NCBI GenBank assembly: GCA_964485485.1
Contig: CAZAJW010000328.1
Coordinates: forward strand, 1 to 55,499
DNA from: an uncultured Atribacterota bacterium
GTDB lineage: Bacteria > Atribacterota > Phoenicimicrobiia > Phoenicimicrobiales > Stramentimicrobiaceae
Direction: 5' to 3'
DNA length: 55,499 nt
In this document: positions 6,046 through 18,228 of the stretch, in pieces
Layout of the letters: every line of letters begins with the position of its first letter
Position numbering within the stretch: the first letter of the stretch is position 1
The notes under the pieces: generated by a model
Databases searched by the model: none
What the model was told of the DNA's origin: nothing
Seen by the model: only the letters and a program-made list of their open reading frames with translations
Program-made: the position numbers and the translations under genes

Positions 6046-7620
6046 TTAGATAACTTTTAAGCCTGTAAAATTCAGTTTTGCAGTATTATTTTGATTGTTG
6101 CGAACTATCTTCATTGCTTCAGGCAGGAAATCCATTATATCATTAGCGGTTATGCCATCTTCTCCCATTTTTTTGGCTGCCAGGTCTCCTGCAAATCCAT
6201 GAACTAACACACCCTGTCTGGCCGCAGATTCAATGGGTAAGCCTAAAGCAAACATTGCTGCTATCGCTCCGGTTAGAACATCCCCTGAACCGGCAGATGC
6301 CATTCCACTGTTTCCGGTCATATTAATATAGATATTACCATCAGGCAATCCTATTATTGAATGAGCGCCTTTTAAAATAATAATAGCATTAAATTCTTGA
6401 GCAGCCTCTTGAATCATATTAATTGAGTTCTCTTTTATTTTAGCAATAGGCTGTTTCATTAAACGTGACATTTCTCCCGGATGAGGAGTTAATATAGTAG
6501 GTTGCTGACGTAATTTTAAAATAGACAGATCATTGCTTAGGGCAGTTAGTCCATCTCCATCAATCAATATTGGCTTATCGATTTTCGCTAACAATTTCCT
6601 AACTAACTCTTGTGTTTCCTCTTGTATAGATAAGCCAGGCCCGATAATAACAATATCCATTTTATTTGAACATTCCAGTAGTTCCTGAAAATTGTCTAAC
6701 CCAATAGATCCGGACATAGTTTCTCTTTGAGGGAGAAAGACTACTTCACTTGCCCTGGAGCTGATATACGGAATAATGGAAGCAGGAGCCGCTAACCTGG
6801 AATAACCACCACCTGTTTTTAAAAAAGAGAATGATGAGAAATAAGGTGCACCATAGTAATTTTGGGCTCCGGATATAAATAAAGCATTTCCGAAAGTTCC
6901 CTTGTGTCCCTCTTTCGGTCGATTAGGAATTGTAAGTGGGGTATTGATTTGTATATTTATATTTTTTTTATTATACAACTCTGGCGGAAAAGAAATATGA
7001 GAAACGTAAAGATTTCCAGCATAATCATAGCCCGGGTAGAGTATGTTGCCTATTTTAGGAAGGCCGAAGGTTACTGTGTAATCTGCATATACAGCGATAC
7101 CATTAACTTTACCACTATTTCCGTCGATTCCTGAAGGAATATCAATGCTAATCACCTGATTGTTCTTTTGATTTATAAGCTGAATAGTCTCGAAATAATA
7201 TCCCTCGATATCCCGGGTAAGACCAGTACCAAAAATAGCATCGATAATAATGTTTTCCGGTTTTATTGATGTTGCTATTTCTTTAATTGTAGGCATAATC
7301 ATTACCGGTAAATTAAGTTTTTGAATAATTTGCCAGTTTTTTAGGGCAGCATTTTGATATTTTTCCGGGTTGCCTAGAATACATAATTTGATATTTGCAC
7401 CATTGGAAAATAATTTTCTCGCAACTACCAGTCCATCTCCGCCATTATTGCCGACTCCGCAGAAAATTAAGAAATGACTATCATTTATTTTAAAATTTTT
7501 TTCGATTACCTGATAGGTTGCCAATCCTGCATTTTCCATCAAAAGTTCATCACTAATTCCATATTTTTCCATAGCTTCCAGGTCCATGTGCTGCATTTCT
7601 TTTACCCGGCTAATTTTCAT
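6046..7620 (-). CDS. nnr: Bifunctional NAD(P)H-hydrate repair enzyme (epimerase + ADP-dependent dehydratase)
   Basis: YjeF N-terminal motif CGVGNNGGDG and C-terminal carbohydrate-kinase motif GSGDVLTG. 524 aa. Confidence 0.9.
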   Translation of the reverse strand: MKISRVKEMQHMDLEAMEKYGISDELLMENAGLATYQVIEKNFKINDSHFLIFCGVGNNGGDGLVVARKLFSNGANIKLCILGNPEKYQNAALKNWQIIQKLNLPVMIMPTIKEIATSIKPENIIIDAIFGTGLTRDIEGYYFETIQLINQKNNQVISIDIPSGIDGNSGKVNGIAVYADYTVTFGLPKIGNILYPGYDYAGNLYVSHISFPPELYNKKNINIQINTPLTIPNRPKEGHKGTFGNALFISGAQNYYGAPYFSSFSFLKTGGGYSRLAAPASIIPYISSRASEVVFLPQRETMSGSIGLDNFQELLECSNKMDIVIIGPGLSIQEETQELVRKLLAKIDKPILIDGDGLTALSNDLSILKLRQQPTILTPHPGEMSRLMKQPIAKIKENSINMIQEAAQEFNAIIILKGAHSIIGLPDGNIYINMTGNSGMASAGSGDVLTGAIAAMFALGLPIESAARQGVLVHGFAGDLAAKKMGEDGITANDIMDFLPEAMKIVRNNQNNTAKLNFTGLKVI

Positions 7621-8040: not shown

Positions 8041-11000
8041 ATGAGGAAAAGCATGGTAGTACAAAACCAAGAATTCGATATAAGGGTAATTACTGATAAG
8101 CTGTTTCAGGAATTAACCAGGATTGATGTTTTACAGAGGTATCAGTTAGACGTTGGAGATATTAAGGCAATAGAAAGAAATTCTACATTTAAGAACAGCT
8201 TATCTGTGATGGTAAATAAAAGAAAATTCACTGCAGCACAAACAATGGAATTATACTTGGATAGATTTCAGTCTAATGATAAATCGGTAAGTAAAGAGCA
8301 ATGGTTAAAGCAAATTTATAATTTTTGTCAGTATTTATCCTTTCCAGATACCCGGCCGGAATTAAAAGATTTACCATTGAGCAAAAAAAAGTTATTTTTT
8401 ATGTTCTTATTGACCTATCGTCAAATAATTGCTTTAAAGCAACAATATGGTGAAACGGATCCTTTTTTGCAACAATACCCTCTTTCTTTTCTGTCTTCCA
8501 AGGAGATTGGATTGTTGGAGCAACCGGAAGAATACCGGCGTTTTTTAAATGCTTTTGATACACTATTTGTCTATGAAATGATGGCTTTAAGTAAAGAAAT
8601 ATATCAATATACTACACTGGACCATATTTGTGGTGTTCATGCATTGGCTTTAAGCATTGCCAGACAGGTACAAAAACAAGGATTTTCTCTTGATTTGGGA
8701 ATTGTATCCGGATCTGCTGCCGGTCATGATGTGGGCAAATATGGTTGTCGAGGAAGTGAACAAAAAAGGGTTCCTTATCTTCACTATTATTATACCGATA
8801 TATGGTTTCAGCAGCAGAATATTCCTTACATTGGTCATATTGCTGTCAATCATTCGGTATGGGATTTAGAGTTGGAAAATCTTTCCCTGGAAGCGCTAAT
8901 TCTTATTTATTCCGATTTCAGGGTTAAGAATAAGCTAAATTCTAATGAAATGAGCATCTATAGCTTACAAAAATCCTTTCGGGTTATCTTAAACAAATTA
9001 GATAACGTAGATGAAAATAAGGAAAAAAGATATCGTAAGGTATTTGCTAAACTTAAGAATTTTGAGGATTTTTTGATAGAGAAAGGAGTGAATGTAGACC
9101 TTATATTATCGCCTGAAAAGAAATATCATCCACAAAGCAAAAAACAATTGTTTTTTGCTTTGCTTCATGGGGATGAAGTAATTCAACAAATTAAGTATCT
9201 ATCTTTGGAACACAGTTTTGTACTGATGTTTCAGTTGCGTAACGAATCCTCTATAAATTCAATACTTGAATCAGCCCGCAGTGAAGGTGATTGGCAAAAT
9301 CTTCAGGAATATCTAAGAATATTTGCAGAATATGCAAGTTATCTTAATCAGAATGAAAAAATTCTTACATTAAAATATTTATATGAACAGCTGATTTTTC
9401 CAGAAGAAGGAATCAGAAGAAGAAGTGCTAAACTAATTGGATACTTAATTGCTACCTTTGATGAAAAGTACCGAAAAGAGATACCAGTTGATGTGTTTAT
9501 AGAACCGTCAAAAGTAAAAAGTGCTGATTTGCTGGAAAAATATATCCAATTGTTTATAGAACCTACCCATAAAACTTCAGAACTCAATCAATGCAGGGTC
9601 AGAGAAAATTTGCCTTTTATTTTTGATGCTTTATTTAAAAATAGCCAGGGTCGACAGATAGAGCAATATCTCCAGATAATTAAAAATTATTACCGGAAAT
9701 ACAACTATGATAATGTTCCTAAAATCATTGCTATTTATTTGTTACAGGCATTAAAAAGTGTTTCCATTCTCCCAAAACAGGATATAGATCCGGTTTTTGC
9801 GAATTTTTTAATTCGATTTATTCAGCATGATGAGGAAACATTGCGAATTACCGCACTGGATGTTACCGAGGATGTCTTGAATAAAATACCGGAAAAAGAT
9901 CCTTTTAAGGAGAGTTGTAAATTAATTTTAAACAAAATAGTAGAATGTTCTTTGATTCCTGCTGAGAACTATCTCCGATATGAAATAAGCAAAAAAATTA
10001 AAGCAAGAAATATTTTAATCAACCGTCTTCAAAAATATTGCCTCCAAGATGTAGAAAAAATTGATAGGATGTATTTAAATAATCTAAAATCATCTACTGA
10101 TGCTATTATTAAAAAAGTTCAAATTGATATGTTGACAGAAAGAGCTAAATCGAATCATAAAGAAGCTGTTTACACTGCCTTACATTTCTGTAATATTTTA
10201 AAAGTTAGCAGTCATGAGTCGATTCGTAATTATGCTGGCCGATCCCTCATTAAGGTTATTCCCTATCTGAATGTTGAACAGAAGAACGATATCTCAATTG
10301 AGCTTCTAAAAGCATTAGAGATAGATGATTATCAATACACAAAATATATTCCATATTATTTAGGACAATCTATTCCTTTCCTGCCTCCCCGTGAAATAGA
10401 TGAATTTATAGATGATTTGGAACAAAAAATAAAAATAGCAGATCAATGGACCTGTACCTTGCTAATTCGTACATTGGCAGTAGCTATAAGCCGTTATGCA
10501 GCATACCGAGCTAGATATAAAGAGGACCAAATTATTTTTAAAAAGAGATTAGCTAGAATGCTGGGAATATTGATGAATGGTTTGGCACATCATGACCCAC
10601 TTGTAAAACGAGTAACTTCAAGGGTTATCGGTAAAGAAATATTTGCTTCGAGTCATCTTACCCTTAGGGAAAAGGAGAATATTTTTCGGCTTATTGCTAA
10701 AAAATTGCTCAATTTGACTACACCGATTTCCCAACACGACACATTATTATTTTTTAGCAATTCGGTAGCGCTGCATCAACTGTATGTATTTATTTCTGAT
10801 TATTATTTTTACGAAGGGGAGATAAAACTTCAAGTCCCCGAATCCATTGCTTTTTTCCCGGGTTCTTTTGATCCATTTTCCTTAAGTCATAAAGAAATAG
10901 TAAGGGAAATTGAGAAGATGGGGATGGAAGTATATTTGTCAGTTGATGAATTTTCCTGGTCCAAGCGAACCCAACCACATCTTTACCGAAAAAATCTGAT

Positions 11001-13056
11001 TAACATGTCAATTGCGGATGAACTTAATGTATATCTCTATCCTGAAAATTTACCCAGCAATATTGCCAACCCAAATGATTTAAAAATGTTAAAAAAGCAA
11101 TTTACTAAATCTGAAATATATATAGTAGCGGGGAGTGATGTTTTATTGAATGCTTCCGCCTATAATAATATAGAAGACCAGAATTCCATAATTCACTTTC
11201 CTCATATAGTATTTAGTCGAAAATCTTTTCACCTTAGCGAAAAACAGCAAAAAAAATATCATGAGATTATAAACAAGATTGAATCAGAGGTAATTCAATT
11301 GAACCTTCAAGCCCCTTTTGAGGAAATAAGTTCTAGCCAGATTAGAAAAAATATCGATAGCCATCGTAGTATTTCTGATTTGGTTGATCCCTTGGCTGAA
11401 CGTTATATCTATCAATTTGGCTTATATCAAAGAGAGCCACAATACAAATCAACACTACAAAAGGTGTATACCAAGGTAGAGGTACAGGAGAATATAAATA
11501 ATGGCCTTATTGAAAAATTAGTAAATGAAGTATTTCCCGAAAAAAATAGAAAGAAAGCACTGGAAAGTCTAAAAAAATTCAACAAGAAACTTAACCCACG
11601 AATTATCCTTTTTAAGGATACGCAAAATAATGAGAAAATATTGGGTTTTTCTGCCATTCACTGGGTTCGTTCCAGCTTGTTTTATCATGAGTTTAATGAT
11701 AATACTATTTCCCAGTATATAAGAGACAACGCAACCGGTCGCACAATTGTTATTGATGGAGTTTTTGTTGTTTCACCTGATGAAAATACCTCCCGCTTTA
11801 GAGATTTAAGTCAGATTGTTTTAACAGAAGCTCTTACTTTTTGTGTAAAAAGAGACTATGATTATGCCGTTTTCAAAAATATGATTCCAGAAAACAATTC
11901 TCCGGAACTAATAGAAACATTAGAGCTTTTTGGATTTTCAGAATTACCGGTTAGTAAAAGTACTGATCCTATTCTGGCTGTAGATATTCGAAAACCCTGT
12001 ACAATAAGTTTAGATATAGAGACACTTATAAAAGCACCATTTGTGCAAAGCTATAGAGTTATTGAAGCAATAAAAATGGCTCGTAAAAAATTGCAAAGGG
12101 CTATTACACGTTTATACCCTGGTCATCTTCTTATTCCTTTTAATATTGATATAATTAACCAATCTATTGTTGCCAAGGTCTGTCAGGAAAATGGTGTATC
12201 AAGTGAACCGGAAAGTGCCAAAAATTTAGGACCGTTAATGTGTGTGCCCTTTGGCAAGATATTACACAAGATGGTCGTACCTAATACCGTGACTAAGTCG
12301 TTGCATACTGACAAAATCTTTACACCGGATATGCAACATTTCAAAATCGATTCATTTGGTTATTACATGAGCCTGGAGAATCAAGTAAAAATGATTAGGT
12401 CTTTTAATCGGCCAGTTTTGTTGATTGATGATCTTCTCCATAAGGGATATCGTCTCAGAGCTTTGAGTCCTTTGCTCAGAAAAGAAAATATTAAAGTACA
12501 TAAGATTATTGTTGGTTTAATATCAGGGAGAGGAAAAGAATTAGCTATGATTCAAAAACGTTCTGCAGATGGTGCTTATTTTATTCCAAACCTGCGAGTA
12601 TGGTTTAATGAAAGTGATTTATATCCTTTTATTGGAGGAGACGGATTATTCCGGCAAGAATCTGAACAAGGCAACCTGGTTCGTTCAATTAATATGATTT
12701 TACCTTTTGCCTATCCTGTTTTTCTAAAAGGTGTTGACCATAAAATAACTTACTATTTATCCAAAACATGTATCGAGAATGCAATCCATATTATAAAAGC
12801 ACTAGAGAGAGAATACCAGGCAATTTATCATAGAAAATTAACTTTGGGCAATCTAGGTGAAGTTTGCCTGTATCCTCGTTACCCTGATCACGGAAAATAT
12901 ATAAATTATAATATGTCAATGGCAACTTCGATTTACTTAGAAAATGATCTGGAATTATTGCATAGAATCTGGGAAAGAGGGACAAAGTCCAGTTCCGGAA
13001 ATTTACTGCTTTACCCGCATTCCCGGGAATTTAATTTAGGGAAGGAGGTAATATGA
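8041..13056 (+). CDS. Giant multidomain protein: HD phosphohydrolase + HEAT-like repeats + NadD-like nucleotidyltransferase + GNAT-like region + PRTase-like C-terminus
   Basis: HD region is HICGVH...GHDVGKYG...YSDFR (about nt 8620-8940). HEAT-like segments include IRRRSAKLIGYLI, IRNYAGRSLIKVI and LVKRVTSRVIGKEI. The nucleotidyltransferase region has FPGSFDPFSLSHKEI and ISSSQIRKNI (about nt 10840-11430). The PRPP-loop-like motif is RPVLLIDDLLHKGYR (about nt 12410-12450). The start could be ATG 8041 or ATG 8053. Confidence 0.75.
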   Translation: MRKSMVVQNQEFDIRVITDKLFQELTRIDVLQRYQLDVGDIKAIERNSTFKNSLSVMVNKRKFTAAQTMELYLDRFQSNDKSVSKEQWLKQIYNFCQYLSFPDTRPELKDLPLSKKKLFFMFLLTYRQIIALKQQYGETDPFLQQYPLSFLSSKEIGLLEQPEEYRRFLNAFDTLFVYEMMALSKEIYQYTTLDHICGVHALALSIARQVQKQGFSLDLGIVSGSAAGHDVGKYGCRGSEQKRVPYLHYYYTDIWFQQQNIPYIGHIAVNHSVWDLELENLSLEALILIYSDFRVKNKLNSNEMSIYSLQKSFRVILNKLDNVDENKEKRYRKVFAKLKNFEDFLIEKGVNVDLILSPEKKYHPQSKKQLFFALLHGDEVIQQIKYLSLEHSFVLMFQLRNESSINSILESARSEGDWQNLQEYLRIFAEYASYLNQNEKILTLKYLYEQLIFPEEGIRRRSAKLIGYLIATFDEKYRKEIPVDVFIEPSKVKSADLLEKYIQLFIEPTHKTSELNQCRVRENLPFIFDALFKNSQGRQIEQYLQIIKNYYRKYNYDNVPKIIAIYLLQALKSVSILPKQDIDPVFANFLIRFIQHDEETLRITALDVTEDVLNKIPEKDPFKESCKLILNKIVECSLIPAENYLRYEISKKIKARNILINRLQKYCLQDVEKIDRMYLNNLKSSTDAIIKKVQIDMLTERAKSNHKEAVYTALHFCNILKVSSHESIRNYAGRSLIKVIPYLNVEQKNDISIELLKALEIDDYQYTKYIPYYLGQSIPFLPPREIDEFIDDLEQKIKIADQWTCTLLIRTLAVAISRYAAYRARYKEDQIIFKKRLARMLGILMNGLAHHDPLVKRVTSRVIGKEIFASSHLTLREKENIFRLIAKKLLNLTTPISQHDTLLFFSNSVALHQLYVFISDYYFYEGEIKLQVPESIAFFPGSFDPFSLSHKEIVREIEKMGMEVYLSVDEFSWSKRTQPHLYRKNLINMSIADELNVYLYPENLPSNIANPNDLKMLKKQFTKSEIYIVAGSDVLLNASAYNNIEDQNSIIHFPHIVFSRKSFHLSEKQQKKYHEIINKIESEVIQLNLQAPFEEISSSQIRKNIDSHRSISDLVDPLAERYIYQFGLYQREPQYKSTLQKVYTKVEVQENINNGLIEKLVNEVFPEKNRKKALESLKKFNKKLNPRIILFKDTQNNEKILGFSAIHWVRSSLFYHEFNDNTISQYIRDNATGRTIVIDGVFVVSPDENTSRFRDLSQIVLTEALTFCVKRDYDYAVFKNMIPENNSPELIETLELFGFSELPVSKSTDPILAVDIRKPCTISLDIETLIKAPFVQSYRVIEAIKMARKKLQRAITRLYPGHLLIPFNIDIINQSIVAKVCQENGVSSEPESAKNLGPLMCVPFGKILHKMVVPNTVTKSLHTDKIFTPDMQHFKIDSFGYYMSLENQVKMIRSFNRPVLLIDDLLHKGYRLRALSPLLRKENIKVHKIIVGLISGRGKELAMIQKRSADGAYFIPNLRVWFNESDLYPFIGGDGLFRQESEQGNLVRSINMILPFAYPVFLKGVDHKITYYLSKTCIENAIHIIKALEREYQAIYHRKLTLGNLGEVCLYPRYPDHGKYINYNMSMATSIYLENDLELLHRIWERGTKSSSGNLLLYPHSREFNLGKEVI

Positions 13057-14330
13057 TATATTTTTACCGTTTACATAAAAATATAATATTTTCAAGTCAG
13101 AAAATTGATGATTTACAGGAGATTAGCCCAGAGAGCATATCGTTTAATGATAATAAATATATTTATTATCTGCAATATGGAAATTGGCGAAGAGATAACT
13201 CTCTTGTTACCCTTATTCACCCAGATCAAATAACAGATAAAAAGAAAGAAATCAACATTCTCCAAAAACCTGATAAAACAAGTAAAGATTTTAACATTTT
13301 CCCTGATTGGATTAAAGACAAAATCAATAGGAGAGAAGTCGGACTATGTTATAAAAGCTATCCCCGTTGGAAAGATAGATTGGAATGGGTGCAACCGAAA
13401 CAGTGGAGAATTAATTTAATTGGTTTAGGAAATGTCGGAGGTACCCTGTTAACTGGTTTACGACTATTAGGAGGAGAAAAAATTGAGAGGATAGGTATTT
13501 TTGATACTAACGAGAAAGCTGTTTCAAGATGGGAGCAGGAAGTGAATCAAATTATCGATGGTTCAAACCAGAGAAGATTACCTCCTGTTAGATCAATTCA
13601 ACCTGATACAATATTTCAAGCGGATATGGTAGTATTTTGCATATCTATTGGAGTTCCTGCACCAGAAAAAAATGAGGTTAGAGATGTAAGGATGATGCAA
13701 CTGGAAGCTAACTCCAGAATTATTAATTACTATGCTAAACGGGCTAGGAAAGTAAGCTTTAACGGTATTTTTTCCGTCGTTTCAGATCCTATAGATTTAT
13801 TATGCCAGAGCGCATTTTTAGCAAGCAACTACAATGAAGAAGGTGAATTAGACGGCAAAGGTCTCAGTGCTGATCAGATTAGAGGATTTGGTTTGGGCGT
13901 AATGCATGGTAGGGCAGCTTATTTTGCAATGAAAGATAGGGATACAGAAGTCTATCTTAAAAAAGGTCGAGTTTTTGGACCTCATGGAAAAGGATTGCTA
14001 GTTGCTAACGATGTAGAAAATTATAATCAGGAACAATCCAATTTTTTAACAGAAAAGGTTTTACATGCTAACCTTGAACTTAGGAAAATAGGTTATAAAC
14101 CATATATAGCTCCGGCATTATCTTCAGGCACGCTTTCGTTATTGGCCTTAATCAATGGTAAATGGCATTATAGCGCTGGTTTTTTAGGGGGGATCTTTTG
14201 GGGTTCCAGAAACCGACAAACACCTCTAGGAATAGAATGGGAACAATACAAGTTTCCTCAAAAATTATTTCAAAAACTGGAAAAAAGTTATCAAGCACTA
14301 AAAAAACAGGCAAAAAAATTGGAGAAATAA
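13053..14330 (+). CDS. Lactate/malate dehydrogenase-family NAD-dependent dehydrogenase with ~115-aa N-terminal extension
   Basis: Rossmann motif INLIGLGNVGGT, SDPIDLL (the NPVD-like position) and the GLGVMHGRA His region. Its ATG overlaps the upstream stop (ATGA), and RBS GAAGGAGG is present. Confidence 0.7.
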   Translation: MIYFYRLHKNIIFSSQKIDDLQEISPESISFNDNKYIYYLQYGNWRRDNSLVTLIHPDQITDKKKEINILQKPDKTSKDFNIFPDWIKDKINRREVGLCYKSYPRWKDRLEWVQPKQWRINLIGLGNVGGTLLTGLRLLGGEKIERIGIFDTNEKAVSRWEQEVNQIIDGSNQRRLPPVRSIQPDTIFQADMVVFCISIGVPAPEKNEVRDVRMMQLEANSRIINYYAKRARKVSFNGIFSVVSDPIDLLCQSAFLASNYNEEGELDGKGLSADQIRGFGLGVMHGRAAYFAMKDRDTEVYLKKGRVFGPHGKGLLVANDVENYNQEQSNFLTEKVLHANLELRKIGYKPYIAPALSSGTLSLLALINGKWHYSAGFLGGIFWGSRNRQTPLGIEWEQYKFPQKLFQKLEKSYQALKKQAKKLEK

Positions 14331-15389
14331 ATGAATTCAGATTTAATTGTTTTATTACCTGGGAAGGTATCCTCAAGATTCGAGGACTTTATACGAGAAG
14401 CAGTCAAGGGCTACCCAAGTCAAATCATTACCAGCATAAACGATGCTCCTTCTTTACAAGAGAAGAAAATATTATGGGCAGTTGAACTAAATGAATATGG
14501 TTTTAACCTTTCACTGGAAGAAATGTTGCAATCAATTTGCCAAAGGGGCAGAGACTCATTAAAAAATGCACATGGGGCGATAATTATACAAAGTCCAGTT
14601 GAATTATGGACTAAATGTTCTGCTAATCGCATTATTTTTCAGACCAACCAGCTGGGATGCCGTTATATGGGTCATTCTGTAGTAGAGGCAACTAAGGATC
14701 TGGTAAATTTTATGACCTGGCAAAAACAGATAAATATACCTTTAACTGAAATCTATCAAAGAAATAGCCGTAATTTAGTTTCTCGATTGGTGAAAAGCAA
14801 TAAAATAATTATTGAAAAGCCGTCTATATTGGTACTATATTCTAATCCCAGAAAAACTTCTAATACCATGATGCTCTGGCAGATGGTAAAAAAGGATATT
14901 CCTTCTAATCGGAATTTAATGGAAAAACATGTAGAAAACGGGACTATTGTCGATTGTAGAGGCTGTCTGTATAAGACTTGTAAGCACTACAGTGAGAGGA
15001 AAAGCTGTTTTTATGGAGGCATTGTTGTCCAGGAAATCTTACCTGCTATTGAAAAGGCAGATTATTTAATATGGCTTTGTCCAAATTACAATGATGCAGT
15101 TTCTGCCAAATTAATGGCAGTCATTAACCGATTAACTGTACTTTATAAACGAGTGAATTTTTATAAGAAAACATTTTTTTCAATTATTGTATCCGGAAAT
15201 TCAGGAAGTGAAAATGTTGCCATGCAGCTCATTGGGGCCTTAAATGTAAATAAAGGTTTTCACCTTCCCCCATATTTTAGTTTGATGGCAATTGCTAATG
15301 ATCCGGGAACAGTTGAAAAAATTTCTGATATTCAAGAGAAAGCCGAAAATTTTGCTCAGAATATTTGTAAAGAGACGGGCATTAAATAA
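14331..15389 (+). CDS. Iron-sulfur flavoprotein-like NADPH-dependent FMN reductase/flavodoxin-fold protein with extra N-terminal domain
   Basis: ILVLYSNPRKTSNT is a flavodoxin-like phosphate loop. The compact Cys cluster CRGCLYKTCKHYSERKSC is Isf-like. The start directly abuts the upstream stop (TAAATG). Confidence 0.62.
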   Translation: MNSDLIVLLPGKVSSRFEDFIREAVKGYPSQIITSINDAPSLQEKKILWAVELNEYGFNLSLEEMLQSICQRGRDSLKNAHGAIIIQSPVELWTKCSANRIIFQTNQLGCRYMGHSVVEATKDLVNFMTWQKQINIPLTEIYQRNSRNLVSRLVKSNKIIIEKPSILVLYSNPRKTSNTMMLWQMVKKDIPSNRNLMEKHVENGTIVDCRGCLYKTCKHYSERKSCFYGGIVVQEILPAIEKADYLIWLCPNYNDAVSAKLMAVINRLTVLYKRVNFYKKTFFSIIVSGNSGSENVAMQLIGALNVNKGFHLPPYFSLMAIANDPGTVEKISDIQEKAENFAQNICKETGIK

Positions 15390-17652: not shown

Positions 17653-18228
17653 TTACTTTTTAAATATTCTACTGCCAGGCTTTACTAGCTTTATGCCTTG
17701 TTTACACATAGGACAATCTTTTTCGTTGTAAATCTTAATATTTAACTTGATACCACAGAAAATAGGTAATCCGATATCCATATTCATTGGTTTTCTATCT
17801 ACTATGCAGGCAACCCCGAGAACATTAGCCCCCATTTCTTCCATTAGATTTCTTACTTCTAAGGTAGATCTGCCGGTAGTAATGACGTCTTCGCTAATTA
17901 AAACATTGGTACCCTTTTTTATGGAAAAGCCTCGTCTTAGTGTAACTTGACCGTTTATTCTTTCAGTAAAAATTGATTCAAGATTAAGCTGTCTACCCAT
18001 TTCATAAGAAGTTATAATCCCACCCATTGCCGGGCCAACTATGATATTTATTTCTAGATCTCTTACTTTGTCACATAGTATTTTTATTATCTGTTCAGCA
18101 TACCAGGGGAATCTTAGTACTTTGGCGCATTGTATATACTGATTAGAGTGTTGTCCGGAAGAGAGTAGAAAGTGTCCTTCTATTAGTGCTCCTGTTTCTT
18201 CTAATATCTTTAAAATTGTTGTATTCAT
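17653..18228 (-). CDS. pyrE: Orotate phosphoribosyltransferase
   Basis: PRPP loop VLISEDVITTGRS, 191 aa, last gene of the pyr cluster. Confidence 0.9.
   Translation of the reverse strand: MNTTILKILEETGALIEGHFLLSSGQHSNQYIQCAKVLRFPWYAEQIIKILCDKVRDLEINIIVGPAMGGIITSYEMGRQLNLESIFTERINGQVTLRRGFSIKKGTNVLISEDVITTGRSTLEVRNLMEEMGANVLGVACIVDRKPMNMDIGLPIFCGIKLNIKIYNEKDCPMCKQGIKLVKPGSRIFKK

Follow-up and report, generated by a model that had tools for sequence, protein, structure and literature searches.

We report here that a 55,499-nt stretch of DNA from an uncultured Atribacterota bacterium (NCBI GenBank assembly GCA_964485485.1, contig CAZAJW010000328.1; this whole stretch is called the window below) carries the gene of a real, conserved and experimentally uncharacterised multi-enzyme of 1671 residues, here called the giant protein, and that this gene is the first of a three-gene module, the other members of which encode a lactate/malate dehydrogenase (LDH/MDH)-like protein and an FMN_red-type flavoprotein. 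An initial annotation, made from the sequence of the window and concerned with the protein alone, had read in it an HD hydrolase, a HEAT-like scaffold, a NadD-like nucleotidyltransferase, a GNAT-like region and a phosphoribosyltransferase (PRTase)-like module, and had suggested a nucleotide- or NAD-related multi-enzyme of unknown function; this module order and, in general, this reading hold up. Based on the analyses in this work, we tentatively propose that the giant protein could make and break a dinucleotide resembling nicotinamide adenine dinucleotide (NAD), working with the two redox partners encoded behind it, a proposal that we regard as possible rather than probable.

Results

The giant protein is a single polypeptide with full-length relatives in many species

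Positions below are those of the whole window, on the + strand unless stated, and residue numbers follow the 1671-residue open reading frame (ORF) as listed. The translation of the ORF contains no internal stop, as expected for the one polypeptide described in the initial annotation, its G+C content (0.31-0.35) is that of the flanking DNA, and a pattern check located every motif quoted earlier at its given position. The real start is probably ATG 8053 (Met5) and not ATG 8041, with a product of 1667 aa, because a GAGGA Shine-Dalgarno sequence lies 6-7 nt upstream of ATG 8053 and the closest homologue (94% identity) begins at the residue matching Met5.

A search with the giant protein against 5.8 billion proteins matched 1915 clusters, and the best 120 of them are nearly all 1620-1670 aa long with a query coverage of 93-100%. 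An exhaustive HMMER search with residues 1140-1671 gave 386 clusters (50% identity), of which 169 had E <= 1e-30, and a pattern scan with one genome per species located relatives encoded in at least 589 loci or species-level genomes. Homologues from isolates or complete genomes include those of Caloramator sp. E03, Crassaminicella indica, Geosporobacter ferrireducens and Clostridium sp. OS1-26. An assembly artefact or a frameshift fusion of separate genes, the danger to which the initial annotation had pointed, was rejected and has virtually no chance of being true, because the full-length relatives in these species-level genomes amount to hundreds of independent homologues, isolates included, and nothing was found in its favour.

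Structure models were made with AlphaFold (AF2) for two halves of the protein, residues 1-930 and 925-1671, the latter with a predicted local distance difference test score (pLDDT) of 80.5 and a predicted TM-score (pTM) of 0.82. The conservation figures given below refer to 45 family members and the Pfam family counts to 30 members.

The central module is a NadD-like nucleotidyltransferase

The NadD-like identity of the central module is strongly supported by profiles and by its predicted fold, and the profile searches that could have spoken against the earlier NadD-type assignment came out in its favour. CTP_transf_like (PF01467), the sole Pfam match of the giant protein, scored over its gathering score (E 1.3e-6), and TIGR00482 aligned over positions 2-194 of its 194 (E 1.9e-13), while its score of 50.8 bits stays below the equivalog cut-off of 112.45 and other NadD models likewise remain far below theirs. 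In a profile search against PDB sequences the module was the only part of the giant protein to be matched, and the structures concerned were NadD and PPAT only. The predicted model has the Rossmann-type HIGH fold including the C-terminal helical subdomain of NadD, and the Foldseek matches ranked 1-34 in the PDB are all NadD or NMNAT, with E down to 3e-7 and target TM-scores of 0.69-0.79.

The signature motifs are PGSFDPFSLSH (residues 940-950, nt 10858-10890) and ISSSQIR (residues 1096-1102, nt 11326-11346). Compared with Escherichia coli NadD, the giant protein keeps GxFDP, D109 (as D1033), an Arg and ISSxQIR, has Y1041 for the stacking aromatic residue W117, and keeps the Lys of the mononucleotide-phosphate site, where PPHR of E. 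coli NadD is SWSK. No full-length member with partner genes departs from FDPF, H950, S1098 or R1102, and invariant positions make up 21-25% of the HD and NadD-like modules. At the position of the HxGH motif the giant protein has SLSH, and the family-wide pattern is S/T-x-[S/G/A]-H, in which the last His alone is invariant and about one third of the members keep the Gly. We take this SxxH variant to resemble the TxGH of PPAT, and because of this resemblance nucleotidyl transfer by the module appears plausible, if unproven.

The giant gene opens a conserved three-gene cassette

What the treatment of the protein alone had left aside is that its gene stands first in a conserved cassette. The ATG of the LDH-like gene overlaps the TGA of the giant gene in the sequence ATGA (13053-13056) and is preceded by GGAGG, and the TAA of the LDH-like gene is followed at once by the ATG of the flavoprotein gene (14328-14333). 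Because of the ATGA overlap and the TAA-ATG junction, both classic signs, the three genes would be translationally coupled. The three-gene order is kept in 16 of 18 loci of Clostridia and Atribacterota, and of a second set of 73 species-level loci 67 contain the LDH-like gene and 62 that of the flavoprotein. The commonest other neighbour family in the 73 loci, a chemotaxis receptor, occurs in 12 of them only; no conserved neighbour besides the two partners was found among 128 flanking ORFs or in the 73 loci, and the clusters of MCP and ABC-ATPase neighbours in the latter are chance recurrences.

Both partners retain residues typical of their enzyme classes. The LDH-like protein keeps GLGxVG, D151, the Arg of DVRxxQ, the Arg of GLGVMxxR and the His of GPHG, with R213, R287 and H311 as catalytic-type residues; presumably the GLGVMxxR Arg stands at the position of LDH R171 and the GPHG His at that of LDH H195, LDH N140 is replaced by Asp, and LDH D168 is not conserved. 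In the flavoprotein, which also has an SNT phosphate loop, C209, C212, C217 and C226 are 100% conserved in 63 sequences, and the pattern of these Cys residues identifies the compact motif of an iron-sulfur flavoprotein at the sequence level.

In seven Clostridium loci (L192, L195, L196, L208, L222, L230 and L231) a gene for a PHP-domain phosphoesterase of 277-301 aa stands on the same strand after the flavoprotein gene, in most of them directly behind it, and looks like a lineage-specific fourth cassette gene.

The HD module carries a complete set of metal ligands

Motif conservation supports the first enzymatic module as an HD-superfamily metal phosphohydrolase with the full binuclear-metal ligand set, so that the HD domain of the initial annotation stands, but its assignment to the YqeK type does not. 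Every one of the 45 members has H195, H229-D230, H248, H271 and D292, the motif HDIGK is present, and with 25% invariant positions the module is the most conserved of the giant protein. TIGR00295 matched it with E 3e-3. PF01966 had no match to the window protein at E <= 1 and the Pfam gathering score was not reached; sub-threshold matches were obtained in 14 of the 30 members (best E 0.016), and a distant member scored 21.5 bits against a cut-off of 22.

Run against the 2387 ORFs of its own genome, the family HD hidden Markov model (HMM) found an HD-GYP protein as its first match (E 2.7e-4). A YqeK-type HD was rejected because a YqeK profile built from 25 Clostridia gave no match to the giant protein at E <= 1e-3 and scored the genuine yqeK of the same genome with 213 bits; in hhalign, the likeness of the module to YqeK (P 2.3e-3) extended over 48 columns and covered the H..HD stretch only.

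A HEAT solenoid and a GNAT-fold domain flank the nucleotidyltransferase

The roughly 550 aa of HEAT-like helical repeats described earlier are borne out, the HEAT/ARM solenoid being supported by the predicted model. The model of residues 1-930 is all helical (pLDDT 88.5), Foldseek matched the solenoid to a designed ARM protein, importin-alpha, CAND1 and SF3B1 (E 1e-5 to 5e-4), and Pfam HEAT matches occur in 17 of the 30 members. The helical region in front of the HD module (residues 1-150) has no family match.

For the domain behind the nucleotidyltransferase, the model likewise supports a GNAT fold. The order of secondary structure over residues 1144-1324 fits GNAT (beta1-alpha1-alpha2-beta2-4-alpha3-beta5-alpha4-beta6), and the Foldseek matches, at probability 1.0, are GNAT toxins, FeeM, SbzI and many viral GNAT acetyltransferases, with E 2-4e-4 for 7byy, FeeM (2g0b) and SbzI (8zt3). 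The fold of the earlier GNAT-like call thus found support, but acyltransferase chemistry is doubtful from the sequence: the acyl-CoA motif A (Q/R-x-x-G-x-G/A, beta4-alpha3) is present in 0 of 45 members, no Pfam acetyltransferase matched the window protein or belonged to the 25 families most often matched in the 30 members, and with 3% invariant positions the domain is the least conserved of the enzyme-like modules.

The C-terminal domain resembles PRTases around the PRPP loop

The PRTase-like assignment of the C-terminal domain is weakly supported by sequence and model. The domain proper covers residues ~1395-1545, within a region that contains CVPFG (nt 12241-12255), a stretch resembling the phosphoribosyl pyrophosphate (PRPP) loop, VLLIDDLLHKGYR (residues 1459-1471, nt 12415-12453), and an invariant GGD (nt 12634-12642). 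In the PRPP-like loop, VLLIDD is followed by [HND]-[KHNQ]-G-[YF]-R, a pattern that contains no Thr; 4 of 45 members have N or T in place of the second acidic residue (DN/DT), and the giant family does not possess the T-G-x-T phosphate loop. Judged by eye, the block VLLIDDLLHKGYR...IVGLISGRGKEL...AYFIPNL...YPFIGGD presumably resembles sequences of the Apt, PyrE and Hpt types.

The initial annotation's call is favoured by this local likeness to the PRPP loop and by the predicted alpha/beta fold, but it fails every formal threshold, and the profile searches run on it gave no significant match. PF00156 was sub-threshold in 11 of the 30 members (best E 0.025), TIGR01203 gave a weak match (E 0.018), and a six-frame PF00156 search of the genome at 1e-5 recovered 8 PRTases, the domain of the giant protein not being among them. 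Pairwise hhalign comparisons with three PRTase families always paired the PRPP-loop stretch, with P 7e-4 for Hpt (a value obtained with a diverse alignment), 0.015 for PyrR and 0.12 for PyrE, and five controls gave P 0.1-0.67 and aligned at other positions. The core of the domain is predicted as a parallel strand-helix alpha/beta fold with pLDDT 85-95; among BFVD viral models, a PRPP synthetase and a PRT-domain protein were matched at a marginal E of 0.02 and probability 0.15-0.21. A length-restricted homology search for stand-alone relatives of the domain returned truncated fragments of the same family only, and its HMM had no significant match among all ORFs of its own genome, where PyrR ranked eighth with E 0.68.

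Natural variants separate a chassis from accessory modules

Relatives of the giant protein fall into four architecture classes. The window protein belongs to the full-length class A, with LDH-like and FMN_red neighbours. Class B (P0269, 1266 aa) is without the N-terminal region and the HD module, has intact nucleotidyltransferase motifs and is followed by Ldh_1_N and FMN_red genes, and class C (P0347, 1075 aa) is also without the GNAT-like region and half of the solenoid and keeps both partners. The shorter relatives start with Met and align to the giant protein from about residue 370 onward only. Because both partner genes still stand beside variants that lack the HD module and, in class C, the GNAT-like region, these two modules are, from their sequences, accessory additions to a chassis composed of the HEAT solenoid, the nucleotidyltransferase-like fold and the PRTase-like fold.

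Class D comprises HD-less proteins of 1065-1300 aa (P0336, P0345, P0371, P0375 and P0329), found on metagenome contigs (L144, L145, L148, L149/L150 and L151). In their nucleotidyltransferase the invariant His is replaced, mostly by Asp, and ISSxQIR has decayed; their PRTase-like block is well conserved. In 5 of 5 loci, which come from different studies, an orthologous protein of ~850 aa is encoded immediately upstream, often coupled; these upstream proteins share 56-63% mutual identity and contain a central PPDK_N ATP-grasp domain (residues ~280-660) with no recognisable swivel His domain. The LDH-like/flavoprotein pair is not adjacent, save 5 kb upstream in one locus. The class D gene and the PPDK_N gene look like a distinct, undescribed two-gene module, and ATP-using activation seems to be needed either in cis, from the NadD-like module, or in trans, from the PPDK_N protein. 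Class D is monophyletic, and midpoint rooting places the HD-less forms basally on long branches with an uncertain root. Near-invariant across all classes are FDPF in the nucleotidyltransferase and D1463, G1469, P1529 and the GG of the GGD motif in the PRTase-like domain.

Two further forms depart from the cassette. One Clostridia genome holds a second copy (L019, G226:C9; 32% identity) in which the signatures of the nucleotidyltransferase are gone (FSPF, FSSKAIS) and the motifs of the HD module and the PRTase-like domain persist; neither an LDH-like nor a flavoprotein gene adjoins it. In the distant full-length form P0388 (L146/L147), the LDH-like partner is followed by a Peptidase_U32-family gene instead of FMN_red; a DHH/DHHA1 phosphoesterase gene also stands after the LDH-like gene there, and UbiD and enoyl-CoA hydratase genes lie divergently upstream.

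The family is patchily distributed and is not a housekeeping enzyme

The family was found in 43 of 86 Atribacterota genomes, in both families of one order and in none of the other five families, and in 21 of 300 evenly drawn Clostridia (~7%). In a maximum-likelihood tree the Atribacterota copies form one clade (support 100) nested in Clostridia near Tepidibacteraceae and Peptostreptococcaceae; because this single clade lies among Clostridia, the tree fits one ancient transfer into Atribacterota followed by vertical descent. The nearest named organism is Candidatus Oleincola secundus (Atribacterota, class Phoenicimicrobiia), and cultured carriers include strains of Clostridium, Caloramator, Alkaliphilus and Geosporobacter, beside which stand the uncultured Atribacterota of the subsurface.

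The genome of the window has a canonical nadD (G000:C175:11113-11676, 190.8 bits) with yqeK immediately after it, as well as hpt (231.9 bits) and seven further PRTases. Because the genome has these separate nadD-yqeK and hpt genes, the giant protein is not a housekeeping enzyme. Databases name it "cytidyltransferase" or "nicotinate-nicotinamide nucleotide adenylyltransferase" because of the single PF01467 match, and that it is the ordinary enzyme of such a name is effectively refuted by the score under the NadD cut-off, by the separate canonical NadD with its adjoining yqeK, and by the absence of the family from 93% of Clostridia.

Table 1. Features of the giant gene, its product and the adjoining genes in the window
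Feature	Residues or length	Position	Strand	Basis or remark
nnr, bifunctional NAD(P)HX epimerase/dehydratase		6046..7620	-	divergent upstream neighbour
Giant ORF	1671 aa as listed	8041..13056	+	ORF listing and translation
N-terminal helical region	1-150	8041..8490	+	1% invariant positions
HD phosphohydrolase-type module	~151-360	8491..9120	+	motif conservation
HEAT/ARM-like alpha-solenoid	~361-925	9121..10815	+	model, Foldseek, Pfam
NadD/NMNAT-like HIGH-type nucleotidyltransferase	935-1130	10843..11430	+	profile, fold, motifs
GNAT-fold domain	1140-1325	11458..12015	+	predicted fold
Linker and PRTase-like alpha/beta domain	1326-1545	12016..12675	+	motifs, weak profiles, model
C-terminal helical tail	1546-1671	12676..13053	+	last ~25 residues predicted disordered
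LDH/MDH-like NAD-binding partner	425 aa	13053..14330	+	ATG overlaps TGA of giant gene (ATGA)
FMN_red-type flavoprotein partner, Cx2Cx4Cx8C	352 aa	14331..15389	+	ATG directly after TAA of LDH-like gene

Discussion

The domain identities, the conservation of motifs and operon, the non-housekeeping status and the phyletic spread of the giant protein were read directly from the data described above; what we propose concerns the substrates and product and the way in which the modules share the work. First, the NadD-like module could transfer a nucleoside monophosphate from a nucleoside triphosphate onto a phosphorylated, mononucleotide-type substrate with a planar ring to yield an NAD-like dinucleotide, the planar ring being suggested because the Asp and the aromatic residue of the pyridine pocket are retained. 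The C-terminal PRTase-like domain may bind, hold or produce the phosphoribosyl substrate, and the HD module could cleave a phosphoanhydride or phosphodiester linkage in the product, or in an incorrect one, in a make and break or proofreading arrangement for which the NadD-YqeK fusion offers a precedent (PMC9426524). The HEAT solenoid would hold the modules together and would probably be where both co-translated partners dock, these redox proteins (LDH-like protein and iron-sulfur flavoprotein) would act on or with the dinucleotide product, and the GNAT-fold domain would probably be structural or ligand-binding and not an acetyltransferase.

Several findings weigh against this proposal. Substrate, product or activity is on record for no family member. 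The canonical HxGH of the nucleotidyltransferase is replaced by a SLSH-type motif, and because of this the ATP chemistry could be altered. The PRTase-like domain had no significant match in the Pfam and PDB profile searches, and Foldseek with the three-domain model returned no PRTase among the best 50 PDB matches. The pairing of making and breaking is not universal, as the HD-less and GNAT-less variants keep the cassette, and because the nucleotidyltransferase motifs are degenerate in class D, the most ancient shared function may lie in the HEAT and PRTase-like part and not in nucleotidyl transfer. Finally, neither a riboswitch nor any further conserved neighbour hints at a ligand in the loci examined, Rfam having found no riboswitch upstream of the giant gene in the window or in 15 related loci.

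Which dinucleotide would be concerned can be thought of in two ways, a new dinucleotide cofactor or signal on the one hand and NAD damage control or salvage on the other, which the present data do not separate. The first, which we consider somewhat unlikely, is that strict anaerobes (many Clostridia and JS1-type Atribacterota) make or use an undescribed dinucleotide, cofactor or signal, assembled on the giant protein. Here the PRTase-fold domain would supply or hold an unusual phosphoribosyl or 2-hydroxyacid-phosphate substrate, the NadD-like module would link it with AMP, trimming or recycling of the product would fall to the HD module, and the LDH-like protein and the iron-sulfur flavoprotein would carry out redox reactions on it; in class D, a sister clade, the PPDK_N-type ATP-grasp enzyme may have taken over the ATP-dependent activation.

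The second, a function in NAD(P)(H) damage control or salvage, appears unlikely as a whole. Pyridine dinucleotides that are damaged or erroneous would be cleaved by the HD module and rebuilt by the PRTase-like and NadD-like modules, and the partners would recognise or re-oxidise abnormal reduced forms. The neighbours favour a pyridine-nucleotide theme because NAD(P)-linked genes recur among them: nnr lies divergently next to the giant gene in the window and throughout its own Atribacterota family, an independent NnrD gene stands two genes downstream in one Clostridia locus (L017), genes of the Glu/Leu/Phe/Val dehydrogenase family occur by the cassette or the class D pair in 7 loci (L013, L014, L017, L020, L151, L217 and L223) in at least 3 different arrangements, more than chance synteny would suggest, and a flavodoxin gene is a neighbour in two lineages, so that the neighbours beyond chance all use NAD(P). 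In addition, the YqeK domain that is fused to NadD in mycoplasmas is proven to hydrolyse or proofread NadD products or mis-products (PMC9426524). However, the HD module of the giant protein is not YqeK-like, the nnr adjacency amounts to 5 of 73 loci, all of them in one family, the genome already has canonical nadD-yqeK and nnr, and for a repair function one would expect a much wider occurrence than in ~7% of Clostridia.

That the giant protein is instead a regulatory scaffold or pseudo-enzyme sensor, the folds of which sense a nucleotide (PRPP, NAD or ATP) and control the redox pair and synthesise nothing, is distinctly unlikely. PRTase folds serve as sensors in PyrR and PurR, and such a role would agree with the complete lack of the acyl-CoA motif in the GNAT-like domain, the PRPP loop without canonical T-G-x-T and with its varying second acidic residue, the non-canonical HxGH, and the decay of the nucleotidyltransferase motifs in class D and in the L019 paralogue, where the PRTase-like region stays conserved. 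Against it stand the HD ligands and the FDPF...H...ISSxQIR series, which are invariant in all cassette-linked full-length members, and the share of invariant positions in the HD and NadD-like modules; therefore, these motifs show the pattern expected of active enzymes.

An anti-phage or conflict system acting on NAD or nucleotides is highly improbable and was rejected: the patchy spread over Clostridia and one Atribacterota order, the single horizontal transfer suggested by the tree and the very large multi-domain build with an NAD-related domain would suit it, but PADLOC had no match for any of the three cassette proteins, the genes on either side are housekeeping genes and not defence islands, the cassette is stably inherited within Atribacterota families and Clostridium lineages, and the partners are redox enzymes.

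Among known systems, the NadD-YqeK fusion or operon is the closest described one, occurring as a fusion in mycoplasmas and as the gene pair nadD-yqeK in Firmicutes, with YqeK being the Ap4A hydrolase of COG1713 (PMC9426524). Like this system, the giant protein unites a NadD-type adenylyltransferase and an HD metal phosphohydrolase in one polypeptide. However, its domain order is reversed with a 560-aa HEAT solenoid in between, its HD module is not YqeK-like, its NadD-like module stays under the equivalog cut-off and shows SxxH for HxGH, two more folds follow towards the C terminus, a pair of redox partner genes is dedicated to it, and its genome holds a separate, genuine nadD-yqeK pair. With NadD/NMNAT themselves (TIGR00482, COG1057; 1k4k, 1kaq, 3e27, 6kg3) the module shares the fold with its C-terminal subdomain, GxFDP, ISSxQIR, and the conserved Asp and aromatic residue at the pyridine-binding positions; it differs in an identity of 15-23%, in the replacement of the first His and the Gly of HxGH, in SWSK for PPHK/R, and in sitting within a 1670-aa protein that is not the NAD-synthesis enzyme of the cell.

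The C-terminal domain has a hydrophobic strand, two acidic residues and a Gly-containing loop (VLLIDDLLHKGYR) that resemble those of type I PRTases (PF00156; Hpt, Apt, PyrE, PyrR), a GxGKEL helix after the next strand as in the Apt and PyrE types, and a predicted parallel alpha/beta core. Unlike these enzymes, it lacks the T-G-x-T loop and any significant profile or fold match, contains a family-specific invariant block, CVPFG...PNTVTKSLHTEK, and is followed by a 130-aa helical tail. The HD module shares the H..HD..H..H..D pattern and HDIGK with HD-GYP and other binuclear-metal HD phosphodiesterases, and within its own genome an HD-GYP protein comes closest to it; the GYP motif and a receiver or sensor domain are absent, so that the likeness is confined to the metal-binding core. 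SpoT/Rel and GlnD also combine, in one polypeptide, a nucleotidyl- or pyrophosphoryl-transferring module with an HD hydrolase that reverses or limits its product; the analogy with the giant protein is one of logic only, as its transferase fold is not related to theirs, and nothing found here hints at an alarmone or at the modification of proteins.

Therefore, the giant protein appears to assemble known folds in an undescribed architecture and operon, and full-text searches of the literature found no study of its family. New in this work are the HD-less and GNAT-less variants with partners, class D with its PPDK_N gene, and the Atribacterota clade inside Clostridia. A strongly conserved protein of ~1,650 residues, occurring in at least 589 bacterial species, has so far been labelled only as a cytidyltransferase or NadD. 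Should an NAD-like molecule be made or repaired by the giant protein, the pyridine-nucleotide metabolism of anaerobes would gain a step, and the NadD, HD and PRTase folds would be seen in a new role. The natural variants separate core from accessory modules, and cultured strains exist in which the function can be tested.

Other observations

A promoter and terminator scan gave nothing above the shuffled expectation in this AT-rich DNA. Among the related loci, an FMN riboswitch (L012:5085-5203) lies upstream of a gene for an ECF riboflavin S-component transporter and is not that of the giant gene, and a c-di-AMP riboswitch (L022:14019-14152) likewise belongs to another gene. Two records carry unexpected phylum labels: a 1,970-bp contig labelled Hyphomicrobiales (L160) encodes an 85%-identical fragment of the Atribacterota type, and the copy in a record labelled "Calditrichales" (L217) groups with a Bacillota metagenome-assembled genome; both labels are probably binning or labelling errors and not real occurrences in these groups. 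In the window itself, 2.3 kb downstream of the cassette and on the opposite strand, a gene at 17653-18228 (-) encodes a type I PRTase of 191 aa (PF00156, 34 bits in the six-frame search), which is probably pyrE at the start of a pyr cluster.

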